Position numbers and translations under genes: made by a program. The notes below the pieces were generated by a model, which saw nothing but the letters and a program-made list of their open reading frames with translations, had not been told where the DNA came from and searched no databases. From a virus (Duplodnaviria; Heunggongvirae; Uroviricota; Caudoviricetes), in IMG/VR virus record IMGVR_UViG_3300028920_001939: 64,000 nucleotides of DNA. One strand, written 5' to 3'. Numbering within the stretch: the stretch's first letter is position 1; the number at the start of each line of letters is the position of its first letter. This document shows positions 11,697-41,445 of this stretch, piece after piece.

Positions 11697-11698
11697 AT

Positions 11699-11995
11699 AT
11701 GAGTTGGCTTAAACAGGCAGTCGGGTTTGCAACATTCTCATTTATACTAATGGTAATATTCATAGTGTTATCAAGTCCATACAACATGTTACTTGATACC
11801 GTTAAGAATGAATCAGAAGAATATGTATCATCTGATACGTTAGACAATAGCATTACTCCATTCCTAAACACTCTACGCACAATTTTCGGGTTATTATTTG
11901 CCTTATCAATGGTTAGTTTAGTTATAGGGATATTTCTGAAGGCGCATGAAGATGAGTATGAAGAATATCCTGAAAATTACAATAGGAGGTTATGA
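11699..11995 (+). CDS. Small 2-TM membrane protein
   Basis: Two hydrophobic segments (FATFSFILMVIFIVL and LFALSMVSLVIGIFL). Confidence 0.45.
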   Translation: MSWLKQAVGFATFSFILMVIFIVLSSPYNMLLDTVKNESEEYVSSDTLDNSITPFLNTLRTIFGLLFALSMVSLVIGIFLKAHEDEYEEYPENYNRRL

Positions 11996-14900
11996 TGAAA
12001 TCAAAGTTATCAATAATTCTTCTTATAATGCTTATATTATCAAGTATTCCCATTACCATTGATGTTAGAGCAGATGATCCTTCTTCTTTTGAATTATTGC
12101 CTAATTCTGATAATGTTGATATTGGAGAAATATTCAACATAAGTGTTTATGTATCACCTAACGCTTCTATCAACTGTATTGCTATTGATGAATTAACATT
12201 TGACCCAACTTTATTGAATATCGTTGCGCACAATGCAACTGATAATGTATCACAAGGCAATATATTCGAAAGTGGAACAACATTATTGTGGCGTAGTGGC
12301 GTTATCAATAATACAGAAGGAAATCTTACAGATGTTTCGTGGGTAACAACTCCTGCTCATGGTGGAGAAGGATATTTCTGCAATATCACTTTTGAAGCAC
12401 TCGCTGTTGGTATTGCTTATGTTAATCTTACAGATGTTGCTATTGTTTACGATATCAACGAATGGGATTATCAGATTTTATCAAACGCAACTATAACTAT
12501 AGGTATCAATGTTACCACAAATGAAGCAACCGGCGTAGAAGAAACAAATGCAACATTAAATGGTTATATCAATAATCCATCTGATTTGCTTCTTAAATAT
12601 GGTTTCAATTGGGGTACAACTGCTTCCTACGGCAATAATTTAACTTTTATCAATATGACTTTTAGTTCTAACAATACTATAGATGATGCTGTTGGAATTG
12701 ATTCTCAATCTATTCTAGATGTTTTCAAGATGAATGGTGTTACATATATGATAATTGGAGCTGTTGATGGGCAATTTGAAGGTTATCATTGGAATGCAAC
12801 TGGATGTGAATGGGAAACTAATGCTTCAATCGTATCTGGTTTAGATGATGTTGGTAGTGATTCTGCTCCGACAATATTTAATATTAGTGATGTATGGTTT
12901 CTTATTGCTGGAGAAAGTACTGGAGTATTTAATGGATATGAATGGAATGGGACAGCTTGGGAAACCAACAACAGTATAATTACTGGTCTTGGTGATATTG
13001 GTGGTAATTCTGTACCATGCACTTTTTATATGAATGGTGTTTTATATCTAATAGCAGGAGAATATAACGGTTATTCTAATGGATTTGAATGGAATGGTAC
13101 ATCTTGGGTAGTTAATGATACTATTAGAAGTGGAATAGGTGATGTTGGTGCTTATTCTACGCCAACAGTTTTTAACATACAAGGAAATTATTTTCTTATA
13201 TCAGGAGAATCTACAGGAGTTCTTAATGGCTGGAATTGGACTGAAGATACTTGGGAGAGTAATTCCTTATATCCTGGTAGTGATGTGGGTGATGATTCTG
13301 CCCCAAATGTTTTTTATATCAACGATAGTCTTTATTTACTTGTAGGAGAAGCAAATACTGTTTTGAATGGTTGGGATATAAATATTGATTTCAACGGCAC
13401 TTTTTCTTATGACCTTACAGGTCTTTCTGAAGGTACTCTTTATCACTATCGTGCTTTTATGAATCAATCTGGTTCTGTTTCTAACGGACTTGATGAAACT
13501 TTCTTAACTAAACCTAATGCGCCGGAAGATTTTCAAGCCATTGCTTGGAATACAACAGTAATAAATCTAACTTGGTCAAAAGGCGATGGTGCTAACAATA
13601 CTGTTGTGGTTCACAAAACAACAGGATATCCCTCAAGTCCAGCAGATGGTTCTATAGTTTATAATGGCACCGCTGAGAAATATGATCATACTATTGTTGA
13701 AGGCACAACAAATTACTATAGTGCTTGGTCTTTTTCAAAGTGGGGTACTTTACATCAATGGAGTGATACAAATGATAGTGATATAGGCAAATATATCGAC
13801 TTCTCTTTGATAATCTTTGTTAATTCAACAACAAGTATTGAAGAAGAAGCAGTGAAACTTAACGGTTATGTTGCTTCTCATGATGCTACATATGCAGATG
13901 TAGGTTTTGTTTATGATACAGAAATACACACAGATATAGATGATTGGACTTATAATTTTACAGCTGAAGAAGATATTGCTAATTATACTGAATTCGATTA
14001 TACTGCTGTAAACTTACAACCTGGAGAATACTATTATGTAAAATCTTGGTTGCATATCTATTATCAAGGAACTCATCTATGGAATCAATCAAGTGATATA
14101 GAATACTTTTTAACCAAACCTGAATCACCATCTAATCTTACTGTTACAGATATTGGTGATACAAACTTGACTTTAGAGTGGGATAAAACAACGGATGTAG
14201 GTTCCGGAACAACAGTAAATACAGTTATACGTTACAAAGAAAATGTATATCCAACATCACCAACTGGCGCAGATGGAAGCACTTTAGCATATAACGGCAC
14301 AGATGAAACTAAATTAGTAACAGGTTTAAATCCTGATGTAAATTATTATTTCAGCTCTTGGACTTGCGCTAACTCATCAGGTTCACCTAATCTATATCAA
14401 TACAGCGATAATTATGATTCTTTGATGTATTCTTTATTCAATGGTACATACAACATAACTGTAAGATATGAAAACAGAACTTATGGTCTTGTTGATTTGA
14501 CAACAGGGCACAACCATCAATTTATAGTGTATTATTCATCATCAACAGAAGTAAACGATTTTAACAAAACAGGTGAAATGGACGGTGGAAATGATACTGT
14601 AGGTTATTGGGACAATGTGAATAACGGCAACTTTACTATTAATGTAGAATCAAGACCTTTATTCTTCTCTTTCCATTGGAATGCTACTAAAACTTGGCTT
14701 GACGATTCAGGTAATTCAAATACAACAAATTTCAGTTGTTACAGAGTTATTGTACCAGAAACAGGACAACGTAATATAACATTCTATATAAGAGATGATT
14801 TGCGTGTTTACGGCGATTCATCTATTTACAGAAACGATAGTTTAGTGCGTTATACAATGTCCTTTATAGATAGTTCTGGGGAATTTATACCTCAAAACAA

Positions 14901-15753
14901 TCCATACGCTATCATATATACCTATGATAGTGAAAACAACAAACAAGTTATACATTCAGAATACTTTGACGCTTCAAAACAGATAATACCTTGGTTGATT
15001 TATGATAAGAGATATTATATCGGCGTAAAATGTGATACAGAAGAATTTGCTAGAATATCAACATTCATTCCTGGAGATGACCAAAATCCAAAGATACTCA
15101 TACCTTATCAATATGTTTCTGACATATCATTTTTTGATTTAATTGAACTTGATGTTGGTAGAACAGCTACTGGTTTCTTTGTTGATTATCAAGATACAAC
15201 AGGTTGCGATATCAGCGCAACTTTATATGTTTGGTGGTATAGTAATGATACAGTTTATAAATCACCTACATACCCAAAAACAGTTTATTTGAATTCACAT
15301 AACTGGACAGTTGTTTGTAACACATCAATGGCTTGGAAATACAATCTTAAAATCATTCTTACAGATACAGATCCAGATGATAATATCAATTATACTGGTA
15401 CATATTGGTTAGCAAACGCTAATGGTGCTGCTGTCTTAAATCCTGGTCTTGAAAGTATTATAACTGTTAATGATATCAATGATATACTCCAAATAATATT
15501 TGGTGATTCACCTATGTATGATAACGAAGGAGATGTTGTTTCTTGGGCTAGTATAGCTCTTTTTGGATTTTCATTTGTATTACTTGTATCATTTGGAAAG
15601 ATAAATGCTTTCGTTGGTTCACTTTCAGTAGGAATATTTTTAATGGCTGCTGGAGGTTGGGTATATGGGGCAATATCTGGTATTGTAGCAGTAGGTGTAT
15701 TCATTTTAGCAATATCAATTGTTGGATTATTGGGAGGTGTTGATACAAGATGA
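11992..15753 (+). CDS. Giant secreted, membrane-anchored glycoprotein (1253 aa): beta-propeller-like repeats plus two FN3 domains plus C-terminal TM helices
   Basis: Sec signal peptide (...TIDVRA/DD). About 5 tandem 48-aa blades (F.NG..YLI.GE..G..NG.EWNGT.W..N.SI..G.GD.G..S.P..F). Two FN3-like domains (TKPNAPEDF...YYSAWSF and TKPESPSNLTVT...YYFSSWT). Dozens of N-x-S/T sequons. C-terminal Gly-rich TM helices. Confidence 0.8.
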   Translation: MMKSKLSIILLIMLILSSIPITIDVRADDPSSFELLPNSDNVDIGEIFNISVYVSPNASINCIAIDELTFDPTLLNIVAHNATDNVSQGNIFESGTTLLWRSGVINNTEGNLTDVSWVTTPAHGGEGYFCNITFEALAVGIAYVNLTDVAIVYDINEWDYQILSNATITIGINVTTNEATGVEETNATLNGYINNPSDLLLKYGFNWGTTASYGNNLTFINMTFSSNNTIDDAVGIDSQSILDVFKMNGVTYMIIGAVDGQFEGYHWNATGCEWETNASIVSGLDDVGSDSAPTIFNISDVWFLIAGESTGVFNGYEWNGTAWETNNSIITGLGDIGGNSVPCTFYMNGVLYLIAGEYNGYSNGFEWNGTSWVVNDTIRSGIGDVGAYSTPTVFNIQGNYFLISGESTGVLNGWNWTEDTWESNSLYPGSDVGDDSAPNVFYINDSLYLLVGEANTVLNGWDINIDFNGTFSYDLTGLSEGTLYHYRAFMNQSGSVSNGLDETFLTKPNAPEDFQAIAWNTTVINLTWSKGDGANNTVVVHKTTGYPSSPADGSIVYNGTAEKYDHTIVEGTTNYYSAWSFSKWGTLHQWSDTNDSDIGKYIDFSLIIFVNSTTSIEEEAVKLNGYVASHDATYADVGFVYDTEIHTDIDDWTYNFTAEEDIANYTEFDYTAVNLQPGEYYYVKSWLHIYYQGTHLWNQSSDIEYFLTKPESPSNLTVTDIGDTNLTLEWDKTTDVGSGTTVNTVIRYKENVYPTSPTGADGSTLAYNGTDETKLVTGLNPDVNYYFSSWTCANSSGSPNLYQYSDNYDSLMYSLFNGTYNITVRYENRTYGLVDLTTGHNHQFIVYYSSSTEVNDFNKTGEMDGGNDTVGYWDNVNNGNFTINVESRPLFFSFHWNATKTWLDDSGNSNTTNFSCYRVIVPETGQRNITFYIRDDLRVYGDSSIYRNDSLVRYTMSFIDSSGEFIPQNNPYAIIYTYDSENNKQVIHSEYFDASKQIIPWLIYDKRYYIGVKCDTEEFARISTFIPGDDQNPKILIPYQYVSDISFFDLIELDVGRTATGFFVDYQDTTGCDISATLYVWWYSNDTVYKSPTYPKTVYLNSHNWTVVCNTSMAWKYNLKIILTDTDPDDNINYTGTYWLANANGAAVLNPGLESIITVNDINDILQIIFGDSPMYDNEGDVVSWASIALFGFSFVLLVSFGKINAFVGSLSVGIFLMAAGGWVYGAISGIVAVGVFILAISIVGLLGGVDTR

Positions 15754-16528: not shown

Positions 16529-16558
16529 TAAAGGTAATAGTAGATTAAAGAGGTAAAA

Positions 16559-17175: not shown

Positions 17176-17310
17176 GTATATTTCTCCAGATATTTATATA
17201 TAAAATATATATTTTCTTTACCAGATATACTATATATCAATAAATATCGGTTTACCTTTATATACCATAAACGATAATACTACCTTCAATAAATAAAAGG
17301 AGGTTAAGAC
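17176..17310 (+). promoter_or_regulatory. Strong promoter/leader region for the small 2-TM protein genes
   Basis: 135-nt AT-rich intergenic region with repeated ccagatat and tatatat elements and a near-perfect SD (aaaggaggt) 8 nt before the ATG at 17311. Confidence 0.35.
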
Positions 17311-17562: not shown

Positions 17563-17574
17563 AGGTGACATCGA

Positions 17575-17865
17575 ATGAAAACACGATTTGGTTTCATTGA
17601 CCCCGGTGCAATAATGGGTGCTGTAGTCTCTCTGATAATACTTGGAGTAGGCGTGTTCGCTTTCTTCATAGTAATAAGTGAAGTGCAACCCACCGTGCCA
17701 GATGATGGTAATTACAGTAATATGACAAACGCTGATAGAAACTTACTCGATAAGTTTAACAATACATCAGCTACTGGAGATTCTGTATTTAACATCATAG
17801 GCATAGTGCTTATCATTGGTGCCATAATGAGTATTGTAGGGTTAGTCTACAACTATGTCCGATAA
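17575..17865 (+). CDS. Small 2-TM protein (paralogue B of 17311-17562)
   Basis: Identical N-terminal 15 aa (MKTRFGFIDPGAIMG) and conserved C-terminus (NIIGIVLIIGAIMSIVGLVYNYVR). Confidence 0.6.
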   Translation: MKTRFGFIDPGAIMGAVVSLIILGVGVFAFFIVISEVQPTVPDDGNYSNMTNADRNLLDKFNNTSATGDSVFNIIGIVLIIGAIMSIVGLVYNYVR

Positions 17866-19573: not shown

Positions 19574-21469
19574 ATGAAGAACAAAGAAGTAATAATAATT
19601 GTTTCTTTATTTATAACTTTATGTTTACTCGTAGGAACAATTACACCGCCTTATTCTTTTGAAGAAACTGTTTCTGAAAATACAGCAACTATTAACTGGA
19701 TAGATGGAAATCAATCTCAAGAAAATCGTTCTTACTTTACTGGTTATCTTATTTATGTATCATATATTGCAGAGGATAACGCAACATATGTTGTAACATC
19801 AAATGATGATGATGATTCAACGGTACAAGCTTTTTATCATAATAATTGTACTTGGTCTGAACTATATACAGTTGATGAGGGAATACCTGCTGTTGGTGAT
19901 TCTGGTGCTACACCAAGGCAAGTAATTAAAGATAATGAAGGATATTATCATATTTTGTATCATGTACATAATGGTTGGGGTGGCTTATACAAGAGTGTAG
20001 GACAAAACATTAGTGAGTGGGGAGAATATGAACAGTTCGGTGCTAATGATGGTTCTAACTATGAACATATATATACTGATGATGGAGATTGGTATATTTT
20101 TTACAGAACAGGTGGAGGCGCAAATAGGCCCTATCATTATAGATTATCTACCGATAATGGAGATAATTGGGGAGCAGAAACGACAATTTTTGATTTTGAT
20201 GATACTACAACACAAGAACAGTATGTTCATGGTATAAGATATGATCCAGAAAATAACTATATACACTTTTCTTGGTGCCAACAATCACATGGTTTAGGAG
20301 GCGCAAGACACGGAATGTGGTATGCTTATTGGCTTTTAACTAATCATTCATTTTGGGACGTAGAAGGGAAATATATAACAGATACTACTCTTAATCATGC
20401 AAATACCAATTATACTCCTTGTAAGTTATTTGGTACTGGTTTTTATACAGAAGCAGGTGGACCTATAGTTAATTCAGGATTTTTAGGAATAGATGAGAAT
20501 AATTATCCATGGGTTGAATTTACAGCTGATTATGACCAATCTGTTGAAACAGAAGATGATTGGGGTAACTATGTGGTTCATTGGGATGGAGATGAATGGA
20601 TACAAGATATTGTATTCAATCAAAGTTATGATGGACATAGTGCTATTAGAAATTGTGGTGCTTTGTATGTACATAATAACTCAAGTATAGACTATTGGGC
20701 TATAGATGGAAATACTGTTGATGATAATGGCGCATATCCAGGAAATGTTACTCACTATTATTATGATGGAGAAGATTGGATTTTTCAAGGTGAATTAGCC
20801 AATTTATCTACTTGGGGAGCACATTTTAATTTTAACATAGGAAGGTATGGAATGAGCACCTTTAATAGTTCTGATGATTTCTCTGGTTGGTGGAATGTTG
20901 CTGTAATAGCTTTTGAGCAAGATGATAATGATGCTTATTATATATATTCTCCTGTTGGTGGATATTTATGTAGTGGAAATAATCAATTATATACTCTTGT
21001 AAGATACTCAGATTCTGATAATATCACAACGATAAATGATGGTTATTCAGCGTATAATGATTCAGGTAATTCTTACACTTTTACTGGGTTAGATAGTGGT
21101 ACTACTTATTATTATAGTGCTTGGTCATTTACTGTAAATGAGGGATATAGTGAAATGGAAGAGGGAACATTTACTACAGAAGGGGAACAAAATACAGATG
21201 TAACAATTTCATCTATAAACAATCAAGAAAATAATACAATTGCAAAAAATAGAAGTAGATGTTTTAATTGGTCAAAAGTTAGTAATGCAATATCTTATCA
21301 AATAAGAATATCAAATACATCTAATTTCGTTACTACTTTCTTAAATATGAGTGTTACTGAAGAAGATTATAGTGTTGTTGGCGGTTATATAGAATATAAT
21401 TTACCATATCAATATAATATAAGTTGGAACGCATATCATTATTATCAGGTAAGAGCATATTTGGCTTAA
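19574..21469 (+). CDS. Secreted glycoprotein with C-terminal FN3-like domain
   Basis: Signal peptide. Sequon-rich. FN3-like ...YTFTGLDSGTTYYYSAWSF shared with neighbouring genes. Confidence 0.7.
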   Translation: MKNKEVIIIVSLFITLCLLVGTITPPYSFEETVSENTATINWIDGNQSQENRSYFTGYLIYVSYIAEDNATYVVTSNDDDDSTVQAFYHNNCTWSELYTVDEGIPAVGDSGATPRQVIKDNEGYYHILYHVHNGWGGLYKSVGQNISEWGEYEQFGANDGSNYEHIYTDDGDWYIFYRTGGGANRPYHYRLSTDNGDNWGAETTIFDFDDTTTQEQYVHGIRYDPENNYIHFSWCQQSHGLGGARHGMWYAYWLLTNHSFWDVEGKYITDTTLNHANTNYTPCKLFGTGFYTEAGGPIVNSGFLGIDENNYPWVEFTADYDQSVETEDDWGNYVVHWDGDEWIQDIVFNQSYDGHSAIRNCGALYVHNNSSIDYWAIDGNTVDDNGAYPGNVTHYYYDGEDWIFQGELANLSTWGAHFNFNIGRYGMSTFNSSDDFSGWWNVAVIAFEQDDNDAYYIYSPVGGYLCSGNNQLYTLVRYSDSDNITTINDGYSAYNDSGNSYTFTGLDSGTTYYYSAWSFTVNEGYSEMEEGTFTTEGEQNTDVTISSINNQENNTIAKNRSRCFNWSKVSNAISYQIRISNTSNFVTTFLNMSVTEEDYSVVGGYIEYNLPYQYNISWNAYHYYQVRAYLA

Positions 21470-21487: not shown

Positions 21488-23596
21488 ATGAAAAATAATA
21501 AAAAGATTGTATGGTTCATTCTTGGTATTCTATTATTTTCAACTATCAATCTTTTTTATATAAATTCTTCCAAAGCGGATGGAGAAAGTTGGCTTACTGG
21601 TTGGACTTATCGAAAGGAGATAACAGTTAGCAATAAGATAGCTGATTATGCTACTATGATTAATGTTACAAAATCATCTGGCGGTGATGTAGATTGTGAA
21701 GGACATTGTAATGATAATTTTAGTGATTTGCGTTTTACACAAAGCGATGGAGAAACATTGATACCTCATTGGATTGATGAATTGGAGTATAGTAGTGGAA
21801 GTTATGCACATGTTTGGGTAAATAATACAAATGATGAAGCTACTCTTTATATGTATTATGGTAATGTTGGTGCAACAAGTACAAGTAGTGGAGATGATAC
21901 ATTTATAGTTTTTAGTTCATTTGAAAATGAATATGATGATGGATGGTCTTTGGATCAAGGTGGTGGTGGGTTTACAGATGTTACAAGTAGAGATGGTAGT
22001 TATTCTGTTGATTTATATGATAATGGTGCTGATGCGTGGTGTGTTCTTAATAGAGCAATTGATTTTGATTTTACATTAAATTGTTGGCTTTATATGGCTG
22101 ATGCTAATGCTGTTTGTCATATACGTTTTTGGGATACTTCTGGTGACCCTCCAGATGCAAATCTTATGTATGGTATTAGATTTGAAGATGATTTGTTGCG
22201 TGTATATGGCGATGTTGGTTATGATGCATATACACCTCATCACAATGAAGATAGTTGGTATTTTTTTGTTTTTGATGTTGATATTTCTGCTAATGATGTT
22301 TGGATGAAATACCGAGAAGATGGTAGTGATACTTGGTCTTATTATAATACAACTGCTTGGTCAGAAGGAAGTGCTGTAACAACATCTGAATTTTGGTTTA
22401 TGAGTGGTTATAATTCTCAACATGCATATTTTGATGCTTTCGTTTTAAAACCTTGGACTACTGGTACTGAACCAAGTTTCAGTTTCGGAAGTGAGGAAAC
22501 AGAGGGACCTGGTTGGACTAATTCTAATCCTTCGATTACTGCAGATAGTGAAAATCCTCCTGATACACAAACAGATGTAACAACATTACTTGCAAATTTC
22601 TATAATCATTTCAATATCAGCGTAACAGATGATGATAACACAAATCAATCTATCAATGTTACTTGGAGAGCTATAGTAGATAGTGAATGGAAAGATATTG
22701 GTTCTAATGCATCTTCAGAATGTAATTCTACCTTTTATTGTAATAATGTTAGTTGGATAGATAGTTATAATACTGAATATACTTGGAGTGTTAATGTATC
22801 AGATAACTGTACTTCTGGTAAAGGGTGGTCTAATCAAACATTTACTTTTACAACAATAGATTATACACCTGATGCACCGACCATTACAGGGGCAACTGCT
22901 GATAGTCCATCACAAATCACAATCACTTGGACAGATGATGATGAGGCAGATTCTACATACATTGAATGGGATTCTCAAAATGATGATAGTTGGAATCGTG
23001 GCGACCATAACGATACAACTATTAATGCAACATCTGGTTCTGAATCACATACAGGTTTATCATCTGGAACAACATATTATTATAAAGCGTGGTCTTGGAA
23101 TGCTTCGCAAGCAATTTGGAGTTCAGGTTCAAATATTGTTAGTGCTAAAACTCGTGGTTTAGTTTGGCACTCTAAAACATTTGGTGGTAGTGTTACTGTA
23201 ACAGGCGGTGAAGCAATAGATTGTGAATTAAATTCGACTAACTGGATTATAGGTGAGTTAGGAGTAGGAAATTCTGCTGTAAAGAATTTCAAATTCTGGC
23301 AGAATGGTACTGCTAATATAGATGTAGAAATCGGTGTAAGCAATATCAATTTTACATTTGTTAATTACACTGATTGGGATGCAAGTGGTTTCAATCAATT
23401 TTGCGCTAACTTTACAAACGACAGCTGGGTAACTGAAACGAATATACTTACAAGTCCATTCAATGGTACACTTAAATATAATTTTGCCCCAGGCAATTTT
23501 GATTTTGGTGTACGTATTTGGATGCCGAAAACTATGAGTGTTGAAAGTAAGAGAGAAGATTTCGAGGTGATTTTAACTGTTACAGAGCATACATGA
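21488..23596 (+). CDS. Secreted glycoprotein, DUF2341-like N-terminus plus FN3
   Basis: Signal peptide (SKA/DGE). WLTGWTYRKEITV resembles the DUF2341 hallmark. FN3 (...HTGLSSGTTYYYKAWSW). WHSKTFGGSVTV motif shared with the 25415 gene. Confidence 0.7.
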   Translation: MKNNKKIVWFILGILLFSTINLFYINSSKADGESWLTGWTYRKEITVSNKIADYATMINVTKSSGGDVDCEGHCNDNFSDLRFTQSDGETLIPHWIDELEYSSGSYAHVWVNNTNDEATLYMYYGNVGATSTSSGDDTFIVFSSFENEYDDGWSLDQGGGGFTDVTSRDGSYSVDLYDNGADAWCVLNRAIDFDFTLNCWLYMADANAVCHIRFWDTSGDPPDANLMYGIRFEDDLLRVYGDVGYDAYTPHHNEDSWYFFVFDVDISANDVWMKYREDGSDTWSYYNTTAWSEGSAVTTSEFWFMSGYNSQHAYFDAFVLKPWTTGTEPSFSFGSEETEGPGWTNSNPSITADSENPPDTQTDVTTLLANFYNHFNISVTDDDNTNQSINVTWRAIVDSEWKDIGSNASSECNSTFYCNNVSWIDSYNTEYTWSVNVSDNCTSGKGWSNQTFTFTTIDYTPDAPTITGATADSPSQITITWTDDDEADSTYIEWDSQNDDSWNRGDHNDTTINATSGSESHTGLSSGTTYYYKAWSWNASQAIWSSGSNIVSAKTRGLVWHSKTFGGSVTVTGGEAIDCELNSTNWIIGELGVGNSAVKNFKFWQNGTANIDVEIGVSNINFTFVNYTDWDASGFNQFCANFTNDSWVTETNILTSPFNGTLKYNFAPGNFDFGVRIWMPKTMSVESKREDFEVILTVTEHT

Positions 23597-23662: not shown

Positions 23663-24157
23663 ATGAAAAACAAAATTGTGGTATTACTGGTCGTATCTGC
23701 TGTATTCGGTATGCTTGCTGCCCCTATAGGGTTTGCAAGTGATACAACAGTTACAGGTACATTCACAGCAACTGCATCATTAGATGTTGATGTAAACAGA
23801 TCTACAGCAGCATTTGGTACTATAACTGTAAGTGATCACTTTACTGTACCATTTAAATTAGTTAATAATGGTACTGTTGCTGCTGATGTAACTCAAGACC
23901 AAGCAGTAAAAGACAGCGGTGATATGACTATCGGAACCAATGGATCTCTAGCACAAGACGAGTATAGCGTTGTAATGAATGTATCAGAAGTTTGGACAGA
24001 TATAGGACAAAACGATAATACAGAAATAGCAGATGGATTAGCAGCATCCGGGGAAAAAGGTTATAATATAACAGTTTACATTGGTCCCTCGTTAAGTGCA
24101 GAATCACATGCAGATGAACAATTTAGCATAGATGTTACTGTAGCGGCTGATACATAA
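23663..24157 (+). CDS. Small secreted Thr/Val-rich protein
   Basis: Signal peptide (GFA/SD); 164 aa. Confidence 0.6.
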   Translation: MKNKIVVLLVVSAVFGMLAAPIGFASDTTVTGTFTATASLDVDVNRSTAAFGTITVSDHFTVPFKLVNNGTVAADVTQDQAVKDSGDMTIGTNGSLAQDEYSVVMNVSEVWTDIGQNDNTEIADGLAASGEKGYNITVYIGPSLSAESHADEQFSIDVTVAADT

Positions 24158-24168: not shown

Positions 24169-24819
24169 ATGAAACATAAAATTTGCTTGATAATGATTCT
24201 TTTGTTATCAAGCATCTTATTTATTTCTAATGCTAACGCCGTAGATATATCATTAGTGAATAGTATAGGTATACACACGTTTGATTATGATGATACAGGA
24301 AATGTGTTAATATCAAAGGGTAGTGTTCCCATTGAAAATCAAGATAAAGAGAATAGCATTCATATAACATTATCAACATCAAATGATTTACTAAATACCG
24401 ATTTAGGTCCTAACAGAGAACCAAGAAAGCATAACATAAATCAAAAAGTTTATTTTTATCCGCTTGTTGATACAAGTTGGGTAGAGTTCGAAGAAGATAG
24501 TTTCACTATTCCACCCGCTTCTGTTAGAATCGCTAATTATACTTTGGTGATACCTGTAGATGAATTGCCATCATATGTAAACGCTACAAATGGTTTCATT
24601 GGTTACATAAAGATAATTTGTGGTTCAGAACCAACTTCGGGTAGTGGAGCAAGTGTAGGAGTAAAATACACATATAAACTATTCGTAATTTTTCACGAAA
24701 CATTTCCATTTCCAATTCCATTATACTATATCATTTCTGTAATAGTGCTTTCTATTGCTTTGATATATCTAGTAATCAGATTACGAATAAAAGATAAGAA
24801 GAAATCGAAACACCTTTGA
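24169..24819 (+). CDS. Secreted protein with C-terminal TM plus basic-tail anchor
   Basis: Signal peptide (ANA/VD). C-terminus FPFPIPLYYIISVIVLSIALIYLVIRLRIKDKKKSKHL, a sortase/archaeosortase-style tripartite sorting signal. Confidence 0.6.
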   Translation: MKHKICLIMILLLSSILFISNANAVDISLVNSIGIHTFDYDDTGNVLISKGSVPIENQDKENSIHITLSTSNDLLNTDLGPNREPRKHNINQKVYFYPLVDTSWVEFEEDSFTIPPASVRIANYTLVIPVDELPSYVNATNGFIGYIKIICGSEPTSGSGASVGVKYTYKLFVIFHETFPFPIPLYYIISVIVLSIALIYLVIRLRIKDKKKSKHL

Positions 24820-25418
24820 AGGAGGTCATTAGAATTAAGAAAATTACCGTTGCGGTAATACTGATACTGATAGTATCTTTGCCTGCAACATACGCAAGTA
24901 ATGAAGTAACTTGCTCTTTCAATGCAAGTGACCCAAATTATGGGAGTAGTGCAATAATGGAATTACCTGAACCTGAAAATAAATCTTGGAGAGATACAGA
25001 TAATCATTCAATGAAAGTTAAAGTATCAAATCAATTAGGTGAAACTATGGATGTATCATTCTATTGGCATAACAATCACACTCTTATAGGCGAAGATACA
25101 GATGTAGCTAACGATACATACGCAAACGTAACTGTCGGATTTAGTTATGTAGAATATGAAAATTATACTTGGTATGTAAATGTAACTGCAACGCACTACG
25201 ATAACCAAAGTGCAAAGTGGTGGTTTAAAGGAGAAGCACACAATTGGGATATCAATAGAGATGAAGATATTAATATAGTTGATGTAACAGGAGTTACAGC
25301 ACACTATGGTGAAACAGATGAAACACCACATTGGATTAGAGCAGATTGTGCAGAAAATGGTGATATAAATATTGTTGATGTTACAACAGTAACATCGCAT
25401 TATGGAGAGTCGTATTGA
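24816..25418 (+). CDS. Secreted glycoprotein ending in a double dockerin-like Ca-binding repeat
   Basis: Signal peptide (TYA/SNE). C-terminus WDINRDEDINIVDVTGVTAHYGE...CAENGDINIVDVTTVTSHYGESY, two DxNxDxxxNxxD loops each followed by a helix. Confidence 0.65.
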   Translation: MKEVIRIKKITVAVILILIVSLPATYASNEVTCSFNASDPNYGSSAIMELPEPENKSWRDTDNHSMKVKVSNQLGETMDVSFYWHNNHTLIGEDTDVANDTYANVTVGFSYVEYENYTWYVNVTATHYDNQSAKWWFKGEAHNWDINRDEDINIVDVTGVTAHYGETDETPHWIRADCAENGDINIVDVTTVTSHYGESY

Positions 25419-26365
25419 TGAAATATGTGAAATATTTAATTGTGATATTAGGATTATTCTTTATTTTATTATTATCTTATAGTGTTAGTGCTGAATGGCA
25501 TTCTCAAAGTTTCGGTGGAAGTGTTACAGTAGAACCTTGGATTAATAGTGCCCCTACTTTTAGTGATAATTCACCATCTGGTTCAGGCATAGAATTAAAT
25601 GTAAATTTATCAGTTGTTGTTACGGATGCTAATGGGAATGAATCAACAGTTTATTGGAAGATTGATACTGATTCAAATGTGAACGATACAAGTGTTGCAC
25701 ATATCAATACTTCTATTTTGAATGAAACTGCTTATTATAATTATTCTTCTGAAGTAGATTCGTATTCTACTACTTATTATGTTGGAGTATGGGCTAATGA
25801 TACACACGACAATTCTTCTATCTATTGGAGTTTTACTACAGTTAATCAACCTGAACCTTATGTTTATGATGAATCACCAACGAACGGTTCAACAGATGAA
25901 GTAACAACAGGTATAACATTATCAATTAATGTAACAGAATATCAAGGACAAAAATTCAATATCACTTGGTCAACGAATGCAAGTGCTTGGACTGCTTATA
26001 ATTCTTCTTGTGATAATGGTACTTTTACACAAGATATAACTTGGGCTGATACTGAATCTACTAAATATTGGTGGAATGTATCTGTTAATGATACTGCTGG
26101 AAATTGGAATAATAAAACATATCATTTTACTACAGGCAGTTTTGAATGGGGAAATTGGTCTGTTTATTGGAAGTTAGGTCAAACATCAATTTATGATGTT
26201 AATCTAAATATGGGTGTGAATATTGTTGATGTTACTTCTGTTACCAGTCATTATGGAGAATCTGGTGATCCAGGGTGGATTGATCAAGATATTAATAATG
26301 ATGGTGATATTAATTATATAGATGTAAGTGGTATCGCAAACCACTTTGGAGAAGATTATACTTGA
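25415..26365 (+). CDS. Secreted glycoprotein ending in a double dockerin-like repeat
   Basis: Signal peptide (VSA/EW). C-terminus ...NLNMGVNIVDVTSVTSHYGESGDPGWIDQDINNDGDINYIDVSGIANHFGEDYT. Confidence 0.65.
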   Translation: MMKYVKYLIVILGLFFILLLSYSVSAEWHSQSFGGSVTVEPWINSAPTFSDNSPSGSGIELNVNLSVVVTDANGNESTVYWKIDTDSNVNDTSVAHINTSILNETAYYNYSSEVDSYSTTYYVGVWANDTHDNSSIYWSFTTVNQPEPYVYDESPTNGSTDEVTTGITLSINVTEYQGQKFNITWSTNASAWTAYNSSCDNGTFTQDITWADTESTKYWWNVSVNDTAGNWNNKTYHFTTGSFEWGNWSVYWKLGQTSIYDVNLNMGVNIVDVTSVTSHYGESGDPGWIDQDINNDGDINYIDVSGIANHFGEDYT

Positions 26366-27696
26366 AGAAGGTGAAAATAATGAATAAAAAATCAATAAAA
26401 ATATTGATAATATCAATAATGCTGATTTTGTCTACAATTGTTTTAACAACAACTGTAAGTGCTGATGATGAAGCTTGGGTTGTATATGTAACTCCAGAAG
26501 AACAAAGTGTTATTAATGGTTCGAGTTTCGAGATAAGTTTAACTGCAAATAACACACAAGGCGGTTCAGGATCTGCAGTTGGTGGTTGGGAGATAACTCA
26601 ACTTAACTGGACTGTTGGTTTAGCCAACATAACATCAGCTACTGAAGGTAATTGGTTGTCAGATGTTGATTCTACTTTGTTTAGTGATGGTGATTTTCAC
26701 AACGCAAGTGGAAACTTAACTGATAACTATTGTGCTATTCTTGGTACTGGAGATACATCAGTAAATGGAACAATGGTGACTTATAATTTCACTACTTTAA
26801 AAACAGGTGTTATTGAAATAACATTTTATGGTTTATTTTCTTATGGAGAAAATGAAATATGGTTTGCCGAAACTACAGGCAACATAACGGTGTATAATGA
26901 TAGTGCGCCAGAAATAGTAGATAATTCTCCTGCTACTGGGACTACTGGAGATTTTTTTCTATTCAATGTTTCTGTTACTGATGATGTTGATAGTGCGCCG
27001 GCGCTTACGGTCAAAGTGAATTGGACGCATGACCCATCTTCAAGTAACGATTCAATGGAATATCAAGGTGGAACTTACTTTGAGAAACAGATAACATTGG
27101 ATAATAGTGTTTCAGATTTAGCATATCATATATATGTTAATGATACAGTTCCAAATGCAAATTATACTGAAGAACTTACAGCAGGTGTAACAGATAATGA
27201 TAAACCATTGAATAATACTAAAGTTAATGTTAGTGAAAAGTTTATGGGAGATGTAACAAAGATATTTAGTATTGATTGGACTAATATTTCTTGTAATGTT
27301 ACAGATAACATAGCTGTAACTGGAGTATATCTTAACATAACAATAAATGGTTCAATCTATGATAATACTTCTGTTGTAGATAATAAAACAGCAGATAACA
27401 AGTATTTTAGAAATAACAGTTTTGCAACGGTTGGAACATATGTTGTATTCTTGCATTCATATGATGCTGCTTCAAACAAGAATAATACTGAAAATCAAAC
27501 TTATGAGATATTCTATAAATGGGATTTAAATCAAGATAATGATGTAAACATAGTCGATATCACTTCCATAACAGGTGTTTATGGACAAACAGGTGATAAT
27601 AGATGGATAAAACAAGATTGTGCATCTACTGGTGATGGAGATATCGACATTGTTGATATAACTACTGTAACCGCCCATTATGGCGAAACATATTAG
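26362..27696 (+). CDS. Secreted glycoprotein ending in a double dockerin-like repeat
   Basis: Signal peptide (VSA/DD). C-terminus WDLNQDNDVNIVDITSITGVYGQTGDNRWIKQDCASTGDGDIDIVDITTVTAHYGETY. Confidence 0.65.
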   Translation: MKKVKIMNKKSIKILIISIMLILSTIVLTTTVSADDEAWVVYVTPEEQSVINGSSFEISLTANNTQGGSGSAVGGWEITQLNWTVGLANITSATEGNWLSDVDSTLFSDGDFHNASGNLTDNYCAILGTGDTSVNGTMVTYNFTTLKTGVIEITFYGLFSYGENEIWFAETTGNITVYNDSAPEIVDNSPATGTTGDFFLFNVSVTDDVDSAPALTVKVNWTHDPSSSNDSMEYQGGTYFEKQITLDNSVSDLAYHIYVNDTVPNANYTEELTAGVTDNDKPLNNTKVNVSEKFMGDVTKIFSIDWTNISCNVTDNIAVTGVYLNITINGSIYDNTSVVDNKTADNKYFRNNSFATVGTYVVFLHSYDAASNKNNTENQTYEIFYKWDLNQDNDVNIVDITSITGVYGQTGDNRWIKQDCASTGDGDIDIVDITTVTAHYGETY

Positions 27697-27705: not shown

Positions 27706-30210
27706 ATGAAGAAGAATATAAGTAAATTGATAATACTAATGCTATTGTTTAACTTACTGTTTGTAGGATTTATATCTGAAGTAAATGCTACAGGCACCAC
27801 AACTTTAGTGATAGATCCAGAGAATACAAATGTAACTATAGGTGATTCTTTTATTGTTTATATCAATGCTACAATTGATACTGATGATGATATAGGTGGA
27901 TTTGAGATAACATTTTTCAATTTTACTTCTGGTGTTGTGAATATCACTAAAGTTAATGAAGGTGATGTGTTTGACGCATATCCATCTTTATTTGATCCAG
28001 GTGATATCTATAATGATACAGGTAACGTAACAGATTCTTATGGTGCTATATTGGGAGTTGAAAATGTATCTGGTGCCAAATCTCTTGTTTATTATAATAT
28101 ATTAGCATACGGCGTAGGCGTATCACCTATCAATTTTAGTGCTGTTTTATCTTATAGTGAAAATACTTTTATTCATACTGATAGTTTTGGTAACATAACT
28201 GTTCATCCAGAATCTATTACAGGCGCAACTGCAACTAATCATTCACATAACAGAATCAATTTAACTTGGGATACGCCATTCGGGAATGGAACTGATAAAT
28301 GTGTAGTATTCGCCAATTCTACTGGAAGTGCTGCTTCAAGAAGTCCAGGTGATGAAATTTACAACGGAACAAGTGATCATTATAATCATACAGGTTTAGA
28401 TCCTAATCAACAATGGAATTATTCTTTCTGGGGTTGGAATGAAACTGCTAGATTGTATTCAATGCTATTTCAACAAGATTCTAACACAACACAAACTTCT
28501 CCAGGTACTAATACTTGGATAATTTTAGGTGATGCAACACCGGCAACTGGTTCAACTTACGCTTATAAAACATCGCAAGAAGTTAATATCACTATAATAG
28601 GCGGTTATCTTACAGATACAATACAACCTATAACACATGGAGCTTTTGGGGGAGCATCAGATGAATTGCCACATCAATATATCTGTTATATGAATATAAC
28701 ATTTGGCGCAACACAATATAATGAAACAGAAGATTATATTTTAGATAGATACAATGGTGTTGTTGATTGGTCTCCTGCTGGAGATGAACCAGCGCCTGGT
28801 GCATCTTATTCAGCAAATTACACATACATATACAATACAGATTCATCATTCAAGTATTGGATTAACACAACAGCAGGGCAAAAAACAGAATCATCTGTTA
28901 ATTCTGGTTATAAAACTTATACAATGAGTGGTCTTACAGGTGGAACTGAATGGTGGAATGTTACTGCTGTATTTGATGGGAATAAAACCCAAGGCAATTA
29001 TTCGTTTGATATCAATCGAAAACCAAGAGGCGGTGGGGATGGAGGAGATTGGAATGAGGATCCTGAAAATTCAGCGCCTTCTGTTTCTGTATCAACAGCA
29101 TTAGCAGTAGATGTTGAAGATTTAGATGGCGATACTGTAAATGTAACTTTCTATTGGCAAAACGATACTCGAATAGATAACGATACTGTTGCTGGAGCAG
29201 GAACTGCTTCTGTTAATCCTTCAACTTTAGATTACAATACAGAATACGGCTGGTATGTGATTGCTGATGATTTTACTGATACAACAAGAGGACCCACAGC
29301 TGGGTATTGGACTTTTAATACATCTTCGTTGGGTATCAATCTAACAAAAGAATGGGTTTTAAATCCTGAAAACAACACTATAAGAAGTTGGATTAATGTA
29401 ACTAATACTGGTACTGCTAACTTAACAGGCGTTAATATATGGGATAGAGAATGCCACGGCTTGAACCTTGTTAGTTATAATAATTCAGTTGATTTTTCAG
29501 GCAACGGTCATTGGAATTGGGAAGCTGCTTATCTTAACATATCAGGTTATGATAATCACACTTACAAGATAACTATGTTACATGAATATTATACACTTGT
29601 GCCTTTAGCAAATGGTAGTGAAGTTTGGAATTATGCAAACGTATCACATCTCGGTCAAACATCTGGACAGAATGTATCTGGCTACTTTGTGGGATTTACT
29701 GCAACTAAAGAAGCAAACGTATCAAAGATGAATAGCACAATACTTGATGTAACGTGGTGGATAAATATCACTAATTCAGGTGATTTCAATCTTACAAATG
29801 TAACAGTAAACGAAACCTATGATGATTTTATCAATTATACAAGTAGTAATGTTGATCCTTTTGATGAATCTAATGTTACGTTTGTTATACCATTTATTAA
29901 GCCAAGTGAAACATTTAGTTTAATGGTTAATATATCTGCGACACCTAACTCAATAACTAATGGTTCAACAGTTTATAACAATATCACTATACGTTCTGAC
30001 CAGTTAGAAGAACAAACATTTAGTGAATCTTTGAGTTATGGTGGACGTACTGAAACTTTGAGAATTACATACGACACGACCTTGACCGATGTATCAGTAT
30101 ATGGAGATTCGTTGGTAATTATAATAGGCGTATTACTAACAATCTCTGCTTTGCTGATAGTAGTTGGATTGTTGTATAAATTCGGTTATCTCGGGAGAGG
30201 TGAGCAATAG
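27706..30210 (+). CDS. Large secreted glycoprotein (834 aa) with FN3 and C-terminal TM anchor
   Basis: Signal peptide (VNA/TG). FN3 (...NHTGLDPNQQWNYSFWGW). Many sequons. C-terminal TM LVIIIGVLLTISALLIVVGLLYKFGYLGRGEQ. Confidence 0.7.
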   Translation: MKKNISKLIILMLLFNLLFVGFISEVNATGTTTLVIDPENTNVTIGDSFIVYINATIDTDDDIGGFEITFFNFTSGVVNITKVNEGDVFDAYPSLFDPGDIYNDTGNVTDSYGAILGVENVSGAKSLVYYNILAYGVGVSPINFSAVLSYSENTFIHTDSFGNITVHPESITGATATNHSHNRINLTWDTPFGNGTDKCVVFANSTGSAASRSPGDEIYNGTSDHYNHTGLDPNQQWNYSFWGWNETARLYSMLFQQDSNTTQTSPGTNTWIILGDATPATGSTYAYKTSQEVNITIIGGYLTDTIQPITHGAFGGASDELPHQYICYMNITFGATQYNETEDYILDRYNGVVDWSPAGDEPAPGASYSANYTYIYNTDSSFKYWINTTAGQKTESSVNSGYKTYTMSGLTGGTEWWNVTAVFDGNKTQGNYSFDINRKPRGGGDGGDWNEDPENSAPSVSVSTALAVDVEDLDGDTVNVTFYWQNDTRIDNDTVAGAGTASVNPSTLDYNTEYGWYVIADDFTDTTRGPTAGYWTFNTSSLGINLTKEWVLNPENNTIRSWINVTNTGTANLTGVNIWDRECHGLNLVSYNNSVDFSGNGHWNWEAAYLNISGYDNHTYKITMLHEYYTLVPLANGSEVWNYANVSHLGQTSGQNVSGYFVGFTATKEANVSKMNSTILDVTWWINITNSGDFNLTNVTVNETYDDFINYTSSNVDPFDESNVTFVIPFIKPSETFSLMVNISATPNSITNGSTVYNNITIRSDQLEEQTFSESLSYGGRTETLRITYDTTLTDVSVYGDSLVIIIGVLLTISALLIVVGLLYKFGYLGRGEQ

Positions 30211-30272: not shown

Positions 30273-31073
30273 ATGAAAAAGGTAAAAATAATAGAAGTAA
30301 AGCCGATGAAAATAAATTGGGTAAACGAAAGACATGATACAGATGGTGATATGATACCAAACTACTTTGATTGTAATCCTTGGAATCCTAATGAGCAAGG
30401 TTGGTTACACGATACTATAGATAAATTAAAAGATAGACATTCTGAAGTTAAGCAAATGAAAAAAGAAAGAAAAGGTAAAGAAGCTTATTTTTCTGCTGCT
30501 AAACAAGATGCACAACAACATGCACAAGTAGAAGCTGAAATACAAAAACAAGTTGATAGAGCAAAAAAACCTGTTTATCTATATGCAAAGATGGGAGATC
30601 CAAGATTGAAAGGTGGATTAAAATGGTATTTTATTGGTGGTTACGAAAGAGGCAATATCAATCAAGTTGTAAGAGAGTTATCATCACGACAAAATGTGCA
30701 CGGTGTTGAATCATCTGATAGAGCAGATATGGAAGGTTATCTTAATAGAAGGGATTTCGGTGAAGCAGTTAAGAAATATGGTAGTGAAAGATGGACTGGT
30801 AAAGATAAAGAAGGTAAAAAAGTTTATAGTGGTTGGAAAGAAAATGTAGAAAGAGGTTTAATGTCAAAAGATAAACAAGAAAGATTGAAAAGATTGAAAT
30901 CTTATCAAAAGAGGTTAGCTATTGAAAGAGCAATCACCGGTGCGCCACAAGTTATTGTGCATACAGGTGATGAATTTAATAGTATAGTAAGTAATAGGCG
31001 TCCTAAAAAAAGGATGATTTATCAAACGTATCCCCCAAGAATGAGAGGGGAAGAAAATATAGGAGGTGAATAG
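30273..31073 (+). CDS. KIIPVK-DTDGDG-DCxPWNP N-terminal family protein (266 aa)
   Basis: MKKVKIIEVKPMKINWVNERHDTDGDMIPNYFDCNPWNPNEQ, a TSP3-like Ca-binding motif in the N-terminus. The rest is Lys-rich. Confidence 0.55.
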   Translation: MKKVKIIEVKPMKINWVNERHDTDGDMIPNYFDCNPWNPNEQGWLHDTIDKLKDRHSEVKQMKKERKGKEAYFSAAKQDAQQHAQVEAEIQKQVDRAKKPVYLYAKMGDPRLKGGLKWYFIGGYERGNINQVVRELSSRQNVHGVESSDRADMEGYLNRRDFGEAVKKYGSERWTGKDKEGKKVYSGWKENVERGLMSKDKQERLKRLKSYQKRLAIERAITGAPQVIVHTGDEFNSIVSNRRPKKRMIYQTYPPRMRGEENIGGE

Positions 31074-31388
31074 ATGAAAATGAAAAAAATAAAAATAATA
31101 CCAGTAAAGTGGATACCAGACAAGCATGACACAGATGGAGATGGTGTACCAAACTACAAAGATTGTGTACCTTGGGACTCAAAAAGGCAACACTTTAAGC
31201 CATTCGGTGTTTATTCTATAGGTAACAACAGATACGCAGTATATCAACAGCAATTAATGGGTGCTGGTTATGTAAAGAGAGGCAAACCATTATTTGTTGG
31301 CACCGAATACGAAGCGAAGCAGTTTATAAATCAGATACCCGTAAATCCAGAAAGTTACGACGCTGAAACATCTATATTCGAGAGGTAA
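31074..31388 (+). CDS. KIIPVK-DTDGDG-DCxPW family protein (104 aa)
   Basis: MKMKKIKIIPVKWIPDKHDTDGDGVPNYKDCVPWDSKRQH. Confidence 0.5.
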   Translation: MKMKKIKIIPVKWIPDKHDTDGDGVPNYKDCVPWDSKRQHFKPFGVYSIGNNRYAVYQQQLMGAGYVKRGKPLFVGTEYEAKQFINQIPVNPESYDAETSIFER

Positions 31389-32455: not shown

Positions 32456-32632
32456 ATGAAATGGTTTGTAATGAAAAAAGTGGATGAAATATCACATTAT
32501 GGTTATAGTGAAATAGTTTATCATAAAGCAAGTAAGTATTTCTCAACTAAAAAGAAAGCGCAAAATGAAATGAAGAAAATGAAAAAGAAACATCCAAAAA
32601 CATATTATAAAATAGGTGGTGAACCTGAATGA
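32456..32632 (+). CDS. Small basic protein
   Basis: Not in the track (58 aa). ...KKKAQNEMKKMKKKHPKTYYKIGG. Confidence 0.3.
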   Translation: MKWFVMKKVDEISHYGYSEIVYHKASKYFSTKKKAQNEMKKMKKKHPKTYYKIGGEPE

Positions 32633-33021
32633 AGAAGATAAAAGTTATACCAATTAAATTGAATTTAGATACAGATGGCGATGGAGTTAAGGATTGTAAG
32701 GACTGTAAACCTTTCAACCCATATAAGCAACACACGAAGAAATGGAAAGAAAAGATGTTGAAAGAAGAACGATTCAAACGAGAACACGCTGATGATATAA
32801 TATGGCATTTAGATAGGGGATTTTCTGAAGGACAAGCATTAACAAGAATGAAAAAGAAACGAAGTTCTAATCTTGAAAAACTAATATCAAGGCACGAAAG
32901 AATATCAAAGATACCTAATGCAACTGCTTTTTGTGGTGATGATATAAGAAGAACAAAAGATGTTGTTATGTATATTCACGATAATAAATTGAAAGATTTA
33001 GGTTCAGAGATAAGATTATGA
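32629..33021 (+). CDS. KIIPVK-DTDGDG-DCKPFNP family protein (130 aa)
   Basis: MKKIKVIPIKLNLDTDGDGVKDCKDCKPFNPYKQH. ATGA overlap. Confidence 0.5.
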   Translation: MKKIKVIPIKLNLDTDGDGVKDCKDCKPFNPYKQHTKKWKEKMLKEERFKREHADDIIWHLDRGFSEGQALTRMKKKRSSNLEKLISRHERISKIPNATAFCGDDIRRTKDVVMYIHDNKLKDLGSEIRL

Positions 33022-41253: not shown

Positions 41254-41258
41254 TAAAC

Positions 41259-41441: not shown

Positions 41442-41445
41442 TTTG

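Follow-up and report, generated by a model that had tools for sequence, protein, structure and literature searches.

Does the 64,000-nucleotide (nt) stretch held in IMG/VR as record IMGVR_UViG_3300028920_001939 (hereafter the window), listed there as a virus of the Caudoviricetes, encode a cohesin-dockerin docking system of its own, and if so, on what kind of replicon? The question is raised by three consecutive genes on the + strand, 24816, 25415 and 26362 (genes are named by their start position in the window), whose exported products a preliminary description had read as the dockerin-tagged cargo of a virus-encoded docking system. Judged from sequence, such a system is the best reading of the region, because cohesin partners adjoin the dockerin tails. 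The locus as a whole is likely to be a self-contained, non-cellulosomal and non-enzymatic cohesin-dockerin surface-assembly module on a circular 101-kb extrachromosomal element of a Thermoplasmatota-type archaeon. The window holds three dockerins and three cohesins, one of the latter graded as probable, distributed over two dockerin-only proteins, one adaptor and two anchored carriers.

The C-terminal tails of 24816, 25415 and 26362 are each ~58 residues long and consist of two similar segments in tandem, each of ~22 residues with a 12-residue Ca loop followed by a helix, which on direct reading is the organization of a dockerin. The three tails align at 48-59% identity with 21 invariant columns, and at the DNA level they comprise six 60-nt segments, two per gene and 93-99 nt apart, that are 60-75% identical. 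Three segments, the first of 24816, the first of 26362 and the second of 25415, have Asp or Asn at loop positions 1, 3, 5, 9 and 12; in the first loop of 25415, position 5 is Asn.

A profile built from the three tails retrieved the dockerin chains 5k39_B, 2b59_B, 3kcp_A and 5g5d_B from the PDB, with expectation values (E) of 3e-6 to 3.6e-5 and both Ca loops aligned; the last three matches are to the type II X-dockerin of CipA. With a 24-tail profile the top 13 PDB matches were all named cellulosomal or dockerin chains, solved dockerins appearing from E 1.5e-6, and 15 of the 24 family tails matched Pfam Dockerin_1 (PF00404), the best at E 3.6e-9. Precomputed PF00404 assignments are also present on the homologues P0017, P0020, P0021, P0023 and P0024. 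As a guard against circularity, a 58-position profile was made only from 28 dockerins of cellular Thermoplasmatota loci. Over the whole model it matched 24816 at E 1.9e-16, 25415 at E 4e-15 and 26362 at E 5.8e-13, and no other of the 117 window open reading frames (ORFs) of at least 70 residues (aa) reached E <= 10. The tail match is not one of chance, and these comparisons support the assignment of the three tails as dockerin homologues, at the positions where the preliminary description had placed its duplicated modules (Table 1).

Evidence for a partner comes from the N-terminal ~150 residues of 26362 and of the downstream protein 27706, which are homologous to each other (34% identity, E 2e-21). 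Database homologues of 26362 combine a signal peptide, a cohesin, repeated X modules and a dockerin, many of them with precomputed PF00963 with or without PF00404. A single-sequence PDB search with the 26362 domain returned nothing, but a family profile of 14 N-terminal domains succeeded, aligning with the full length of the solved cohesins 1g1k_A (E 5e-6), 2vn5_A, 3ul4_A and 5lxv_A, down to E 2.9e-4, and 10 of the 14 members matched Pfam Cohesin (PF00963), the best at E 2.3e-13. A cohesin profile restricted to cellular sequences found 27706 at E 1.5e-18 and 26362 at E 6.1e-14.

The AlphaFold model of 27706 aa 28-170 (predicted local distance difference test score (pLDDT) 93.5, predicted template-modelling score (pTM) 0.87) corresponds to the cohesin fold, a nine-stranded beta-sandwich (jelly-roll) of ~140 residues. 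When it was searched against the PDB with Foldseek, the top 14 matches were all cohesins (TM-score 0.65-0.73, E 3.6e-7 to 1.1e-5), with 2vo8 the best and 3ul4_A, 2vn6_A, 1g1k_A, 6kgf, 4uyp_A, 4dh2 and 1qzn among them, followed by unrelated beta-sandwiches at TM-scores of at most 0.53. The model firmly identifies the N-terminus of 27706 as a predicted cohesin. In the full-length model of 26362 the cohesin region has a pLDDT of 85-95; a Foldseek search of the PDB with that model returned only generic chains of multiple immunoglobulin (Ig) or FN3 domains and is uninformative on the cohesin. A third domain of this kind is probably present, in divergent form, at the N-terminus of 11992, where a cohesin profile that excludes the 11992 sequence (A2) matches aa 27-170 at E 6e-14. 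Among the scaffold candidates of the preliminary description, 27706 therefore has a firm cohesin and 11992 a probable one, but 24169 matched no cohesin or dockerin profile and no Pfam cohesin family. The proteins 24816 and 25415 retain the proposed role of dockerin-tagged cargo, whereas 26362 is itself a cohesin-plus-dockerin adaptor.

Table 1. Genes of the cohesin-dockerin cluster in the window, with predicted features (L numbers denote loci or contig stretches, P numbers homologous proteins)
Gene	Coordinates	Strand	Product (length)	Predicted features	Docking modules	Relatives
11992	11992..15753	+	exported protein, candidate second membrane anchor (1253 aa)	signal peptide, probable cohesin, FG-GAP-like repeats, FN3 modules (Pfam fn3), hydrophobic N- and C-termini, the latter multi-span; 53 sequons	probable cohesin aa 27-170 (nt 12070-12501)	
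23663	23663..24157	+	secreted protein, conserved upstream neighbour of the cassette (164 aa)	signal-peptide-like N-terminus; no Pfam or NCBIfam match		homologues at the equivalent position in L003, L014 and L015
24169	24169..24819	+	conserved neighbour (216 aa)	signal peptide, C-terminal transmembrane segment, basic tail		syntenic homologue in L003; homologues in L014, L015 and L012
24816	24816..25418	+	dockerin protein 1 (200 aa)	signal peptide, ~115-aa module, dockerin	dockerin aa 142-200 (nt 25239-25415)	homologues P0030-P0036
25415	25415..26365	+	dockerin protein 2 (316 aa)	signal peptide, ~230-aa sequon-rich part, dockerin	dockerin aa 259-315 (nt 26189-26359)	orthologues in L003 and L010
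26362	26362..27696	+	adaptor (444 aa; 438 aa from alternative ATG 26380)	signal peptide, cohesin, two beta-sandwich X modules, dockerin	cohesin aa 35-181 (nt 26464-26904); dockerin aa 385-444 (nt 27514-27693)	
27706	27706..30210	+	membrane anchor (834 aa)	signal peptide, cohesin, DUF4815, DUF11/CLIPPER-type modules, transmembrane helix aa ~803-824 (nt 30112-30177), short basic tail; 53 sequons	cohesin aa 26-169 (nt 27781-28212)	

Hydrophobic, signal-peptide-like N-termini are predicted on all seven proteins of Table 1. N-glycosylation sequons occur at 4.5-5.9 per 100 aa in 24816, 25415 and 26362, 2-3 times the expectation from composition, and at 3-6.4 per 100 aa in most cluster proteins versus at most 1 in the cytoplasmic-type (replication, ATPase) proteins of the element. 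Because Sec-type signal peptides are found on all seven and sequons are packed into most, the seven proteins are predicted to act outside the cytoplasmic membrane, in agreement with the export and glycosylation first proposed for three of them. Both docking partners would lie on the same, outer side, with the cohesin carriers 27706 and 11992 attached to the membrane. Neither Pfam nor PDB sequence searches found a catalytic or carbohydrate-binding module (CBM) family in the dockerin proteins: the cargo module of 24816 has no PDB sequence match, and the N-terminal part of 25415 matches no family and no PDB sequence. Because the cargo is free of catalytic signatures, the product appears to be a structural or adhesive glycoprotein array, not an enzyme complex.

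In the assembly that we propose, the two anchors would stay in the membrane, 27706 by its single helix and 11992 probably by several spans, each displaying one N-terminal cohesin. The adaptor would offer its cohesin N-terminally and its dockerin C-terminally, and 24816 and 25415 would offer a dockerin only, behind non-catalytic modules. After export, Ca2+ would fold each duplicated dockerin, and the dockerins of 24816, 25415 and 26362 would plug into the cohesins of 27706, 11992 and 26362, tethering the adaptor and the two small glycoproteins to the anchors, directly or via the adaptor, which may chain head to tail since it has both modules. The outcome would be a layer of glycoproteins, or an adhesin, that the element specifies and that sits on the host envelope or a membrane-derived particle; surface masking, cell contact and particle decoration are possible purposes.

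Several features of the cluster stand beside this proposal. Overlaps of 4 nt join 24169 to 24816 (24816-24819), 24816 to 25415 (25415-25418) and 25415 to 26362 (26362-26365), and 24816, 25415 and 26362 have TTG starts, an arrangement that suggests translational coupling of 24169, 24816, 25415 and 26362. Gene callers differ here, 26362 being begun at ATG 26380 (438 aa) and the Joint Genome Institute (JGI) call of 24816 being without the signal peptide (153 aa). Just upstream lie two large, secreted, sequon-rich neighbours, a BNR_4 protein with a sialidase-like propeller (window 19574-21469) and a protein with DUF2341 and FN3 modules (21488-23596). Profile scans found no dockerin or cohesin in either, and the two hint that the surface module might also bind or modify glycans. 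A thrombospondin-type-3-like Ca motif, D-[TA]-D-x-D-G-x-x-N-[YF]-x-D-C-x-P-[WFL]-[ND]-P, occurs near the N-terminus of four basic proteins lacking signal peptides, 9057-11696 (aa 54), 30273-31073 (aa 22), 31074-31388 (aa 19) and 32629-33021 (aa 14), three of which lie directly downstream of the cohesin anchor 27706. The motif is also conserved in L003, L009 and L014, matches Pfam TSP_3 only at E 0.38, and could be a second kind of shared tag.

A hidden Markov model (HMM) scan of ~100 related loci revealed a recurring order of dockerin protein(s), cohesin-X-dockerin protein and cohesin protein, and a strict pairing of dockerin-only, cohesin-plus-dockerin and cohesin-anchor genes is repeated in dozens of loci. 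The order of dockerin, adaptor and anchor genes is kept in at least four relatives of the element and is seen in L003/L004, L009/L010 and L014, which is the conservation that the preliminary description had suggested looking for, and partial sets are present on the short contigs L012, L013 and L015. Window ORFs shared in synteny number 21-24 in L003/L004/L011, 15 in L014 and 6-8 in L009/L010 and L015; the L003 locus matches the window down to the 164-aa and 216-aa proteins upstream and includes both dockerin-only proteins. Because the related contigs keep the cassette along with many non-cassette window genes, it is, by sequence comparison, a conserved part of an element family, with a chromosomal counterpart in the same phylum.

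That counterpart was found, surrounded by cellular genes, in the complete or nearly complete chromosomes CP070798 and CP070724, and also in other metagenome-assembled genomes (MAGs) of Thermoplasmatota. In CP070798.1 the cassette consists of a dockerin protein (313 aa), the adaptor P0015 (622 aa) and a cohesin protein, and it adjoins Hdr/Mvh hydrogenase genes. On the Thermoplasmatales chromosome CP070724.1, positions 9965-17839 of locus L063 carry an enlarged cellular form of the cassette with five consecutive members: a cohesin-dockerin protein of 633 aa, two cohesin proteins of 438 and 425 aa, a cohesin-dockerin protein of 328 aa and a last cohesin protein of 407 aa. A search of species-representative genomes gave 38 matches, all in archaeal MAGs save one weak match to the X module only in a Saccharibacteria MAG, and every near-full-length adaptor match lies in a MAG titled Thermoplasmatota or Thermoplasmatales. 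The system was not invented by the element; most likely, the cassette was acquired from, or shares ancestry with, a homologous Thermoplasmatota chromosomal cassette.

Comparison across the element family bears on whether the dockerins and cohesins of one element belong together. The dockerins have ortholog-specific flanks, WD.NRD...HWIRAD in the 24816 type, IYDV.L.M...GWIDQD in the 25415 type and KWDLNQDN...RWIKQD in the adaptor type. The starts of the helices (loop positions 9-11 onward) agree within an element and differ between elements, reading NIV in the window, DIN in L003 and L014, TLT/SLS in L012/L013/L015 and DVL/SVL in L009/L010; they include loop positions 10 and 11, which set dockerin specificity in clostridia. 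Over positions 9-11, 13-15 and 17-18 of the two segments, identity is 52% for paralogues of one element versus 36% for orthologues of different elements, and in the rest of the dockerin module the order is reversed (paralogues 55%, orthologues 67%). When element labels were permuted within ortholog classes, 5 of 5000 shuffles reached the observed value; the sample comprises few elements and the positions were partly picked after the alignment had been seen, which counts against the proposal and because of which we grade the co-variation of dockerins by element as suggestive. It is not recent gene conversion, because the six coding segments are only 60-75% identical and differ at many synonymous sites. 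A cohesin strand changes in step, D.Y[CG]AILG in the window, C[YF]TI.G in L003 and L014 and [MV][VM][LM]G in L009, and the variant is common to the adaptor and anchor cohesins of each element. The simplest reading would be one shared specificity per element, kept matched by selection. Because the three dockerins share their specificity residues and both cohesins share the matching strand variant, the set probably has one specificity, private to the element, and no hierarchy of type I and type II pairs.

A number of observations weigh against a docking system and are best considered together with an alternative, in which the tails are generic Ca-binding modules for stabilization or wall association that do not bind the neighbouring cohesins, their co-location reflecting a shared surface-protein neighbourhood. 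Many non-cellulosomal dockerin-like modules have no known partner. The Asp/Asn pattern at loop positions 1, 3, 5, 9 and 12, which the preliminary description had given for both segments of all three tails, holds in most segments but not in the second loops of 24816, with Ala at position 3 and Asn at position 5, and of 26362, with a 2-residue insertion. None of the three window proteins reaches the gathering score of Pfam Dockerin_1 (22.9 bits), the check put forward with the original dockerin proposal: the whole 24816 protein scores 19.2 bits and its isolated tail 22.8 bits, 25415 scores 10.4 bits, and 26362 gives no match. Because the window proteins by themselves stay below this score, their dockerin membership rests on profile and transitive homology. 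Likewise, the cohesin domain of 26362 matches no Pfam family and the window sequences alone fall below the Pfam Cohesin gathering score, and the cohesin of 11992 is graded as probable because the cellular-only profile does not find it. In the AlphaFold model of full-length 26362, residues 393-438 have a pLDDT below 50 and no secondary structure, leaving the F-hand helix-loop-helix pair of a dockerin as a prediction from sequence. Docking between window cohesins and dockerins is itself deduced from sequence, and the cargo modules have no function recognizable by family or PDB search, which makes the biological purpose guesswork. On the side of generic modules, the cargo also includes no enzymes and a multi-cohesin scaffoldin is absent, and the role of archaeal cohesins and dockerins is described as unclear (PMC9012536).

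Nevertheless, we consider generic modules very unlikely. The strict pairing of dockerin-only, cohesin-plus-dockerin and cohesin-anchor genes over dozens of loci speaks for partners that belong together, as does the concerted, element-specific change at the specificity positions and in the cohesin strand despite diverged DNA. Archaeal cohesin-dockerin pairs have moreover been shown to bind, at least as summarized in PMC9012536 from its references 167 and 168.

Turning from the docking system to its carrier, the ENA contig ERZ27252253 k141_4173328 (101,246 bp) encodes an identical copy of a window protein, and both of its ends are the same 141 nt, the signature of a circular assembly at k=141. 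This 141-nt end overlap corresponds to window positions 48433-48573, and the window crosses the junction with 0 mismatches on either side. Because the contig ends are identical and the window reads through the junction, the replicon is circular or circularly permuted, with a length of 101,105 bp. The carrier is thereby shown to be an extrachromosomal element, and its host is probably a Thermoplasmatota-type archaeon. It encodes a family B DNA polymerase (PolB), a resolvase, an RFC-type clamp loader, a primase-like protein, a DNA methylase, an ERCC4 nuclease, a Cas4-like nuclease, an SPFH protein, a MazE-like antitoxin, a pair of MoxR-type AAA and VWA proteins and many small ORFs, and judged by this gene content it would be self-replicating. 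Window ORFs of at least 150 aa are all on the + strand.

An ordinary Thermoplasmatota chromosome, with the cassette as the host's own surface-protein operon, might at first seem to account for the window as well, given that the homologous cassettes in CP070798 and CP070724 are flanked by Hdr/Mvh and other housekeeping genes. The closure of the contig at 101,105 bp, with its 141-nt assembly overlap and a window that spans the junction, makes this extremely improbable. A scan of the 64,000-nt window found no tRNA, no family scan of element ORFs turned up a ribosomal or core metabolic family, the replicon has its own PolB, RFC and primase with all long ORFs on one strand, and related contigs share 15-24 non-cassette genes in synteny.

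Other features of the replicon are recorded for completeness. Its GC content within the window is 28-36%, and the cumulative GC skew climbs monotonically from end to end with no turning point, and hence no origin or terminus signal, inside the window; a tandem-repeat scan of the window gave nothing relevant. Window 40423-45182 encodes an SPFH/Band-7 membrane protein, then a MoxR/GvpN/CobS-like AAA_5 ATPase, then a CobT-like VWA protein, a trio often found on large phages and plasmids. About 0.8 kb past the window end, a 92-aa S24/S26-like ORF with the motif GNSMKP adjoins the resolvase (L005 13575-13853). No other ORF shows the GNSM.P nucleophile motif, and this one lacks a membrane segment; an NCBIfam match to 'archaeal signal peptidase I' (E 9e-8) probably stems from it, but it is probably not a true signal peptidase and was left out of the system.

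Were the element a virus, the cohesin-anchored network could decorate a membrane-containing virion on the outside or serve it in receptor binding, or it could mark the membrane of the infected cell at sites of budding or egress. PolB, RFC, the primase-like protein, the Cas4-like nuclease and the MoxR/CobT-type AAA and VWA pair are reminiscent of large archaeal and bacterial viruses, as are the many small ORFs on a single strand. PolB matches sequences of Salinibacter and Halorubrum viruses only distantly, and a Zn peptidase matches the phage-type family phrog_4191 at E 1.8e-67, which is not a virion hallmark gene. Searches for virion genes covered ~78 of the 101 kb, and the 22.5 kb outside this coverage (contig 23327-45839) would be large enough for a morphogenesis module. 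In the ~78 kb, PHROGs (applied to 10 and then 56 ORFs) revealed no capsid, portal, terminase or tail family, and Pfam (~40 ORFs, with precomputed assignments for three contig stretches) and NCBIfam revealed no head, tail or packaging family. Single-protein and alignment searches of 2.9 million IMG/VR contigs found no relatives of the cassette, of PolB or of an 879-aa protein, and the cassette was unmatched in PHROGs, in INPHARED phages (by tblastn) and in PLSDB plasmids. Moreover, the proteins of tailed virions normally lack Sec signal peptides, which we also count against a virus. Virus status is therefore unproven, ~78 of 101 kb having been examined without a virion hallmark gene, and we regard a virion or egress role as unlikely; the term virus-encoded, used in the preliminary description, is not upheld by these searches.

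One large protein bears on the virus question. The ORF L007 4909-9630 (1573 aa), of which window 22-3045 encodes the last 1007 aa, specifies a very basic protein rich in Ser and Lys, with an HELTH (HExxH) motif and, at its centre, a hydrophobic region rich in Gly and Ala; the 1007-aa window part contains no Cys and no sequons. It has no match in Pfam or PHROGs and is possibly a tape-measure-like or internal protein, which would favour a virus. If the element is a virus, Sec-exported, cohesin-anchored glycoproteins would imply unusual biology of the virion or of the infected-cell surface in Thermoplasmatota.

The novelty claimed for a mobile dockerin set survives in part. No virus or plasmid precedent was found in PHROGs, INPHARED, PLSDB, IMG/VR or BFVD, and no paper on a virus- or plasmid-borne cohesin-dockerin set was found, an absence of evidence within the literature library searched; the same cassette is, however, present in Thermoplasmatota chromosomes. 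In BFVD, a viral structure library, the 27706 cohesin model matched no named cohesin. Its best matches there, A0A7T8ERM8 (243 aa, unnamed) and G4YC55/G4YBB9 (TMq 0.58-0.67, E ~3-5e-5), may be cohesin-like folds in viral proteins.

Taking the self-contained surface-assembly module as the likely core, a bolder extension can be offered tentatively: an element family, be it of viruses or of plasmids, might carry a portable cohesin-dockerin kit of lineage-private specificity and build with it a glycoprotein coat or adhesin of its own on host membranes or particles. Equally speculative, though conceivable, is that concerted change in the facing cohesin strand and at loop positions 9-11 of the dockerins has re-tuned the kit. 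If true, the kit could serve competitor exclusion, cell-cell contact for transfer or host recognition, and it would be the first cohesin-dockerin system encoded by a mobile element as well as a natural set of orthogonal docking pairs. The residue sets NIV, DIN, TLT/SLS and DVL suggest such naturally orthogonal pairs, which are of interest for protein-scaffold engineering. The locus is a compact, complete and evolutionarily replicated case of anchor, adaptor and cargo without enzymes, and it is an example of a mobile element equipped with surface-assembly hardware of its own. The combination of a mobile carrier with a chromosomal counterpart in the same phylum provides a small, testable model for the role of non-cellulosomal cohesins and dockerins on archaeal surfaces.

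Among known systems, the nearest relative of the window cassette is the Thermoplasmatota chromosomal cassette (CP070798.1 1575920-1597788; CP070724.1), which has no annotated name. Homologous proteins, 31-43% identical, follow one another in a common order in the two cassettes: first a dockerin-only protein, next an adaptor with 'GTTGD..FN' X modules and last a cohesin protein. The window cassette differs from it in its circular 101-kb carrier, in having two dockerin-only proteins and an extra, probable cohesin on the 1253-aa protein, and in the much greater size of its anchor, which includes DUF4815/CLIPPER modules and a transmembrane helix. The window dockerins also group as a clade apart, with other residues at the specificity positions.

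For both modules the best profile and structure matches come from clostridial cellulosomes; examples are a type I cohesin from CipC of C. cellulolyticum (1g1k/2vn5) and, from CipA of C. thermocellum, a type II X-dockerin (2b59). Like these, the window system has duplicated, near-identical dockerin segments, compatible with a dual binding mode, and follows a logic of anchor, adaptor and cargo. In contrast to cellulosomes, it has no glycoside hydrolase or carbohydrate-binding cargo, carries one cohesin per protein with no multi-cohesin scaffoldin, is anchored by transmembrane helices rather than by surface-layer homology (SLH) domains or sortase, and belongs to a mobile archaeal replicon, with N-glycosylation predicted from sequons and what appears to be a single specificity. 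Because it has neither a multi-cohesin scaffoldin nor enzymes, it is not a cellulosome sensu stricto.

Docking modules outside cellulose degradation, as in the window, are also known from Clostridium perfringens toxin complexes, Archaeoglobus fulgidus and anaerobic methanotrophic (ANME) archaea (Peer et al. 2009; Chadwick et al. 2022). In the glycoside-hydrolase toxin complexes of C. perfringens (cohesin 2vo8), the dockerin cargo is an enzyme. In archaeal proteins one dockerin goes with a single cohesin or a few, the function being largely unclear (PMC9012536), and in ANME archaea the dockerin cargo is often a substrate-binding protein (Chadwick et al. 2022, PMC9012536). Whereas these non-cellulosomal systems are chromosomal, the window set is carried by an extrachromosomal element, and its cargo consists of small beta-rich glycoproteins.

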